A DNA stretch of 6,544 bases from a virus. Its lineage: Duplodnaviria; Heunggongvirae; Uroviricota; Caudoviricetes. The position numbers are program-made. The stretch lies in IMG/VR virus record IMGVR_UViG_2534682160_000009. One strand, given 5' to 3'. Below are positions 6,001 to 6,544 of this stretch, piece by piece. Position 1 is the stretch's first letter; the number at the start of each line of letters is the position of its first letter.

Positions 6001-6544
6001 AAAACAGGCGCAAAAAAAGCGCCCCCGATTGCTGTTACCGGAGGCGCTTTTACACGACAAAGGAGTTTTTATCGCCAGGATGACGAGTCTTAATACTGCT
6101 TCAATGGCAAAAATGCGTCAATAACTTTGCCTTTCTGAGAATAATCAGAAAAATCATAATCTGATTTTCAGGTATAAAATGATTTATCTATTACTTTTAT
6201 CGATCAATAATGATGCCCGTTAATCAAAACGGAGGCGGATTTATGCCAGAGAACAACACCAGAAAGCCGGATAAAAGTGCCACGGTACACATAGACGCCG
6301 GAACTATGGAGAAGATCGAACGCTATCAGCAGTTCATCAAAGATAATCACCCGGGTATGCCGGTACCCACGAAAGGACAAATCACACGCAGCGCGGTTGA
6401 ATACTGGTACCAGGCAACGTTAGGAGCCTGGCTATGAAAACATGGTTTTCCATTAAGGCTATGGCAGATGTTGTCTATGTGCGTATTTATGACGAGATCG
6501 GCGGGTACGGTGTAAAAGCATCGACACTTACTGACGAGATCAAC

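Follow-up and report, generated by a model that had tools for sequence, protein, structure and literature searches.

A protease, scaffold and capsid fusion gene begins at the edge of a viral DNA stretch that very probably belongs to a Gram-negative phage-inducible chromosomal island

The last 111 nucleotides of a 6,544-nt stretch of caudoviricete DNA (IMG/VR record IMGVR_UViG_2534682160_000009; hereafter the window, meaning the whole stretch that was analysed) hold the start of an open reading frame (ORF) that runs off the end, and the question raised by this locus is what gene begins there and what a phage satellite would do with it. An earlier note, made from the sequence by itself, had read the frame as the start of a ClpP-like prohead protease and had proposed that, if so, the satellite brings its own machinery for capsid assembly. 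The best explanation as a whole, held with considerable confidence even with its proposed mechanism included, is that an EcCI-type Gram-negative phage-inducible chromosomal island (PICI) has its principal late-zone gene beginning in these 111 nt, a gene that in relatives joins a ClpP-fold protease to a scaffold-like linker and a major capsid domain.

The frame itself is as that note had described it. It starts with an ATG at 6434, translates in frame 1 as MKTWFSIKAMADVVYVRIYDEIGGYGVKASTLTDEIN and is free of stops up to the end of the window (6434-6544, plus strand); a Shine-Dalgarno-like GGAG precedes the ATG by 9 nt (6421-6424, plus strand), and the ATG overlaps the TGA of a preceding 64-aa ORF in the tetranucleotide ATGA (6434-6437). 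When the window sequence is shuffled, some 14% of its ATGs precede at least 36 sense codons, so a 37-codon frame is by itself within chance, the antisense frame is likewise open across the same 111 nt, and the 37-aa peptide alone has no Pfam match even at E<=10. Given that an open frame and a short peptide are weak evidence, the case for a real gene rests on homology. Over positions 5900-6544 the window is 98-99% identical to 151 complete Escherichia coli chromosomes, in which the ORF continues and is annotated as a 'ClpP-like prohead protease/major capsid protein fusion protein'. An exact-identity look-up of the upstream 64-aa protein gave eight contigs (L006-L013), and in all eight the next gene overlaps it by 4 nt, has no mismatch to the window over its first 111 nt and continues as an intact 629-aa ORF whose product combines CLP_protease with Phage_capsid_4. 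At full size in relatives the gene is 1,890 nt long, and the window edge cuts it after codon 37. Within the RefSeq fusion family NF045540, WP_033804800.1 matches 36 of the 37 visible residues and other copies match all 37 with identical DNA; architecture and curated family are the same, with no substantive difference, although the family name covers architecture only. To judge from these near-identical relatives, the gene is likely intact in the source genome as well.

For the protein tests, a full-length homologue identical over the visible part stood in for the 37-aa peptide. It scores 892.1 bits (cut-off 475) against NCBIfam NF045540, the protease/major capsid fusion model, and 201.9 bits (cut-off 120) over residues 16-172 against NF045542, the ClpP-related head maturation protease model, and so belongs to both families, which bears out the earlier reading of the N-terminus. 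PHROGs assigns it to phrog_133, 'head maturation protease', with 934 bits, and Pfam places CLP_protease at residues 41-173 (3.8e-33) and Phage_capsid_4 at residues 331-623 (8.3e-55). Against the canonical ClpP equivalog TIGR00493 it reaches 63.3 bits where the cut-off is 308.6, so far under it that the protein is not the housekeeping ClpP. The idea that the frame is a chance opening, or the start of a housekeeping ClpP paralogue rather than of a phage head gene, could draw on the shuffled-sequence frequency and on the peptide's want of a Pfam match; it is refuted by the TIGR00493 score, by the eight contigs that share the 111 nt without a mismatch and continue to the 629-aa fusion, by the score against the head maturation model and by the fused HK97-fold capsid domain, and it keeps next to no probability.

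The earlier note had also suggested looking downstream for a catalytic set and for an adjacent or fused capsid gene, and the relatives supply both, the capsid protein being fused to the protease in the same ORF. The visible 37 codons encode the protease domain's initial strands and helix; Ser83 (in GMAASMA) and His106 (in MIHAP) fall beyond the window edge. In the relatives these two align with the catalytic Ser97 and His122 of ClpP, as judged against solved ClpP chains and E. coli ClpP, and the third triad position is filled by Glu155, aligned to ClpP Asp171, with Glu instead of Asp. Among 80 family representatives, ranging down to 34% identity, 77 keep the Ser and 78 the His; at position 155, 67 have Glu and 7 have Asp. 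An AlphaFold model built from the alignment of these 80 sequences has a mean predicted local distance difference test score (pLDDT) of 90.4 (an earlier model from 16 sequences, at 40.8, was discarded), and by fold matches its N-domain has the ClpP fold and its C-domain the HK97 fold, with a helical stretch between the two. The homologue thus has both the ClpP/crotonase fold that goes with NF045542 and, within the same ORF, the C-terminal HK97-fold capsid domain that goes with NF045540: residues ~1-175 form a ClpP-fold serine protease, ~184-360 a helical scaffold-like linker and ~360-629 an HK97-fold major capsid domain. The fusion gene is under purifying selection (ratio of nonsynonymous to synonymous polymorphism, pN/pS, 0.07-0.29), and the catalytic residues are invariant.

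In phage HK97 the protease is a separate gene product of a different, herpesvirus-protease-like family (S78), whereas here a ClpP-fold protease lies within the same polypeptide. The logic is the same in HK97 gp4 and gp5 on the general model, with a scaffold covalently joined to an HK97-fold capsid protein and removed by a protease inside the procapsid (PMC12749128). In the phage D3 paper, too, the protease is separate and not fused.

A phage counterpart of the whole protein exists. The nearest one is the head gene of the lambdoid, Stx2a-converting phage Stx2_95 (LC567838), a 674-aa 'phage protease/scaffold protein'; it is the same three-part fusion, 52% identical over 99% of its length, though it has an N-terminal extension and a 35-aa linker insert rich in proline, alanine and threonine (P/A/T) that the satellite copy lacks. 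Its gene order runs terS, terL, a small gene, portal, fusion, then head-tail and tail genes, with no separate capsid gene annotated, so that in phages the fusion is the capsid subunit. The two also share a near-identical cos-like sequence. The first copy in the satellite, at window positions 5811-5938, shares 82% identity with the Stx2_95 sequence that immediately precedes terS. The second, in relatives, follows directly on the fusion stop (L002:18275-18470; L006:8105-8297; L018:2458-2653) and is 87-92% identical to the same phage sequence, so that two copies of a ~100-130-nt element bracket the capsid module, ~2.5 kb apart. Both align with the lambda-type cosN of EcCICFT073, the prototype Gram-negative PICI, with a different core, GGGCGGGCGGCG; the window's copy has the core GGGCGGGAGGGCG, a 1-nt insertion relative to the phage GGGCGGGCGGCG in the putative cosN. 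Lambda cosN itself (GGGCGGCGACCT) has one 1-mismatch match in the window, inside the primase gene, which is at chance level and was rejected.

Each cos-like element opens with a further structure. A hairpin and T-run (GCCGGA-GCAA-TCCGGC-TTTTTT, window 5794-5815) stands directly after the SSB stop, and its counterpart after the fusion gene (L002 ~18258-18280) reads GGCGGC-ACCA-GCCGCC-TTTTTT, the stem sequence differing while structure and aligned position are kept; it looks like a terminator opening each element, although a consensus terminator scan did not list it. A 67-aa ORF that annotations place across the fusion's 3' end (L002:18187-18390; L001:15361-15564) is probably not a gene, although phrog_5188 matches it: it overlies the second cos-like element and its sequence mirrors a spurious ORF over the first (window 5743-5883).

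Within the window's lineage, cos and capsid gene alike are of types that indicate Stx2_95-like lambdoid phages, in parallel with EcCICFT073, where a lambda-type cos goes with lambda-type E and D genes, and a phage of this kind is a plausible helper type on sequence grounds. Full-length cos plus terS of the Stx2_95 type occurs in 402 of 5,426 complete E. coli genomes, mostly of Shiga-toxin-producing E. coli (STEC).

What kind of element carries the gene follows from the rest of the window and from its relatives. On the plus strand, the window encodes a tyrosine integrase at 1-1239 (Pfam Phage_integrase and Arm-DNA-bind_3), an AlpA-family regulator at 1571-1867 (Pfam Phage_AlpA, 4.8e-16), a D5_N/DUF5906 primase as the island replication module at 3058-4812 and a single-stranded DNA-binding protein (SSB) at 5355-5777 as the final replication-zone gene ahead of the late zone, the last two likewise by Pfam, as are a DUF3950 protein and DUF4222. 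AlpA is the PICI activator in EcCICFT073 (PMC6092414). This is the arrangement of EcCI-type islands: co-oriented integrase, AlpA and primase/replication genes, then a late zone, and no lysis or tail genes. The closest whole-window match, JNEC-KY175 (96.7% identity), has its island between cspD/yljB and clpS; the island in L002 measures ~9.8-10.5 kb between yljB/cspD and clpS, and cspD-clpS is the published site of EcCIIHE3034, which thus shares its integration site with the window's closest relative. The two cos-like copies, 82-92% identical to the Stx2_95 terS-upstream region, would fit the same island type.

The likeness to EcCICFT073 extends to gene order (coordinates from Table S1 of the paper describing it), which is the same throughout: int, AlpA, an Icd-like gene, DUF4222, primase, an 85-aa gene, SSB and a late zone ending in a 93-aa gene. 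Each has two cos sites, functional in EcCICFT073 (PMC6092414) and cos-like in the window's lineage. The difference lies in the late zone, where EcCICFT073 combines a lambda-type cosN with a decoration gene and a capsid gene of the lambda gpE family (351 aa, Phage_cap_E 5e-51), and the window's lineage has the non-homologous protease/scaffold/capsid fusion in the same slot with a Stx2_95-type cos. Capsid genes are the commonest late gene of Gram-negative PICIs, present in 21 of 29 reference islands, and their late zone is described as dynamic, holding genes captured from helpers (PMC10111431).

How much of a capsid assembly machinery does the satellite then have? The relatives' islands end ~0.5 kb past the fusion; in JNEC-KY175 and RM10410 a 93-aa ORF alone follows it before chromosomal genes resume (the annotated 67-aa ORF aside), and no portal, terminase, connector or tail genes are found in either island. 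The earlier proposal holds for the shell-building gene and fails for the portal, terminase and connector, which the relatives do not encode. The capsid-forming PICIs (cf-PICIs) described with EcCIEDL933 (10.1101/2022.09.08.507074) share the same int/alpA/rep backbone and encode capsid and head-maturation protease functions, but they are ~15 kb long and carry portal, head-tail connectors, HNH, TerS and TerL, whereas the window's relatives, at ~10 kb, have none of these and offer the 64-aa ORF, the fusion and the 93-aa ORF only; the window's island is for this reason not a cf-PICI.

The role that the fusion may play can be sketched by analogy with HK97-type head assembly and with the published biology of EcCICFT073. 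A lambdoid helper would induce the island and the AlpA-dependent operon would be activated; translation of the fusion would be coupled to that of the 64-aa ORF ahead of it; the fusion's capsid domain would assemble procapsid shells on a portal supplied by the helper, carrying the tethered protease and scaffold inside; the protease would then cut away itself and the scaffold; and the helper terminase would package island concatemers from the cos sites, with helper tails completing the particle. That the fusion is a functional capsid subunit in satellite particles ranks first among the possible roles, as a tentative choice; that it is a helper-compatible spare of little effect ranks second and is somewhat doubtful; and that it serves interference with helper capsids ranks third, as a less likely role again.

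A number of points weigh against this account. The window shows 37 of 629 codons, and the catalytic residues and capsid domain are visible in near-identical relatives only; an exact 83-nt scan for the window's tail in species-representative genomes gave no match; and one of 144 genomes (H80) has a disrupted copy of the fusion. A PICI capsid gene has been reported as not required for transfer (PMC10111431), deletion of c1499 or c1500 (capsid and decoration) in EcCICFT073 left lambda interference in place, and EcCICFT073 DNA is packaged in phage-sized capsids (PMC6092414), and the only knockouts are of that island's non-homologous lambda-E-type capsid gene and not of the fusion type. Finally, RM10410 carries the PICI's own cos copy only and no Stx2_95-type cos plus terS prophage at megablast sensitivity, so that co-residence with such a prophage is not obligatory.

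The tolerated knockout, together with the capture of helper late genes by these zones (PMC10111431), lends some weight to the notion that the fusion was captured from a helper's late genes and has been kept passively, without serving the satellite in any way of its own. The repeated cos-like sequences around the module could mediate exchange, and non-homologous capsid modules, lambda E/D in one case and the fusion in the other, share a position in similar islands. Decay is what one would expect of 1.9 kb of useless coding sequence in a ~10-kb element, whereas this gene is under the purifying selection noted above with invariant catalytic residues, is intact over at least 80% of its length in 143 of the 144 complete genomes that carry it, and forms two deep PICI-specific lineages; passive retention is accordingly an unlikely account, if one to be reckoned with.

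Those two lineages bear on a further alternative. In the 5,426 genomes the window's fusion (lineage A) is found in 144 and a sister (lineage B) in 195 at a coverage of at least 80%, fusions bearing the NF045540 family name are matched in ~1,500, and the window's lineage is enriched in STEC. The lineage B protein (P0088; 637 aa, 62% identity) is PICI-borne on the same backbone, and its gene is followed by one for a DUF1441 protein 48% identical to the TerS of phage Stx2_95 (L014:11171-11656; also L015-L017); the window's lineage has no DUF1441 gene, and no Rpp- or TerS-like gene was recognised in it. In both lineages the PICI fusions are 52-56% identical to the nearest phage copy, and intact, selected copies at that distance favour long residence over recent capture. 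Such residence would suit a size-redirecting or satellite-specific capsid protein, with the PICI building its own, probably smaller, shells on the helper portal, in the manner of SaPIbov5 Ccm or halfway to the cf-PICIs. The linker between protease and capsid (residues 176-330) would suit it as well: at 156-159 aa in the PICI copies it compares with a median of 187 and a maximum of 268 in the 80 representatives, among which the PICI linkers rank second to fourth shortest, and the PICI copies lack the 30-35-aa P/A/T-rich insert of the phage protein, although the comparison covers two satellite lineages and is correlative. Four further diverged representatives lie in small integrative or plasmid-like surroundings, where a small ORF overlaps the start of the fusion and neither portal nor terminase is present, and such cassettes of a small ORF and a fusion point the same way; together with the short linkers they fit, without showing, a compact satellite head kit. 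As cited in PMC6092414 and PMC6893505, SaPIbov5 Ccm is likewise a satellite-borne HK97-fold capsid homologue paired with cos packaging; it has no fused protease, belongs to another host phylum and family, and has small capsids demonstrated for it. Against shells of the island's own stand the full-size capsids and dispensable capsid gene of EcCICFT073 (PMC6092414), and an island that encodes no portal needs a shell compatible with the helper's; the alternative is improbable.

A third possibility is that the fusion acts as an interference factor, a diverged subunit or tethered protease that co-assembles with the helper capsid protein and poisons or mis-times head assembly. Strong interference with helpers is known of classical PICIs (PMC6092414; PMC6739421), mixed assembly is conceivable given capsid domains that are 59-60% identical between satellite and phage, and a lineage that lacks its sister's TerS-like DUF1441 gene may have another route of interference. 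In EcCICFT073, by contrast, deletion of c1499/c1500 did not restore lambda plaques, and Rpp acting on TerS is responsible (PMC6092414; PMC6739421), while the conserved catalytic and full HK97-fold features suit a working capsid protein equally well; interference as the explanation is thus decidedly unlikely.

The small ORF that precedes the fusion recurs in its own right. The 64-aa ORF (6243-6437, plus strand; phrog_4934, function unknown) has no Pfam match, and its ATGA overlap with the fusion suggests translational coupling of the two. Lineage B has a homologous 69-aa ORF in the same place (38% identity), and small ORFs whose stop overlaps the fusion start recur in satellites at 64, 69, 70 and 88 aa (window 6243-6437; L014:8795-9004; L019:1835-2047; L024:4869-5135), the 70-aa and 88-aa versions showing no detectable similarity to the 64-aa and 69-aa ones. 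By eye the pattern of a beta strand and two helices is ribbon-helix-helix-like, with no family model matched. The idea that the 64-aa ORF is a truncated portal remnant was rejected, as comparison with a phage portal showed no similarity. Upstream of it by ~70 nt, at window positions 6130-6175, an AT-rich inverted repeat (AATCAGAAAAATCATAATCTGATT) is followed by TATAAA and may serve to regulate the late operon; a sigma-70 consensus promoter scan of 5700-6544 found none, and Rfam at gathering thresholds had no match in the window.

At the other end of the module, a 93-aa protein (phrog_1561, no Pfam match) closes the island in all three late-module types (L002:18509-18790; L005:11874-12155; L014:11659-11940), at 74-91% identity from one type to another. 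Its conservation far exceeds that of the capsid modules before it and makes it a candidate for a core PICI late function. The islands are strongly mosaic, as a comparison of window positions 1-6544 with L001, L002 and L006-L017 demonstrates: the same late module is shared across replication modules with a 584-aa or 605-aa D5_N primase or a 469-aa AAA_25 helicase, and occurs with differing integrases at no fewer than four chromosomal sites (cspD-clpS, pgrR-mppA and others). More diverged fusions (37-50% identity) lie in L019, a 10.6-kb metagenome contig, and in L020-L022 and L024-L025, beside an integrase, an AlpA-like HTH protein, and a primase-helicase or IncFII RepA, with no portal or terminase, which suggests that one-gene head modules are widespread among satellites or phage-plasmid-like elements outside E. 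coli as well.

The observation at the window's edge is thus confirmed, and the interpretation that the earlier note placed on it is supported: the gene call was correct, and the protease is in fact fused to a capsid protein. The feature is already known, with a curated NCBI model and near-identical annotated copies in well over 100 complete E. coli genomes, and in a class of islands whose late-zone capsid genes are documented in the literature it is an ordinary one. The point of interest is the role of a complete protease-scaffold-capsid gene in a satellite that has neither portal nor terminase. Should the fusion act on the assembly of helper heads, the yield of Stx phages and satellite-mediated gene transfer among STEC could be altered. 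More speculatively, and with rather little probability, the one-gene module may be a compact head kit with which a classical PICI makes smaller shells of its own on a portal stolen from the helper, a stage between the classical islands and the capsid-forming ones, its trimmed scaffold (156-159 against 187 aa) setting the size and its late-module and cos types co-adapted to a lambdoid, Stx-phage-like helper lineage; were that so, the cassettes of small ORF and fusion in unrelated small integrative elements would mark a widespread and unrecognised satellite strategy.
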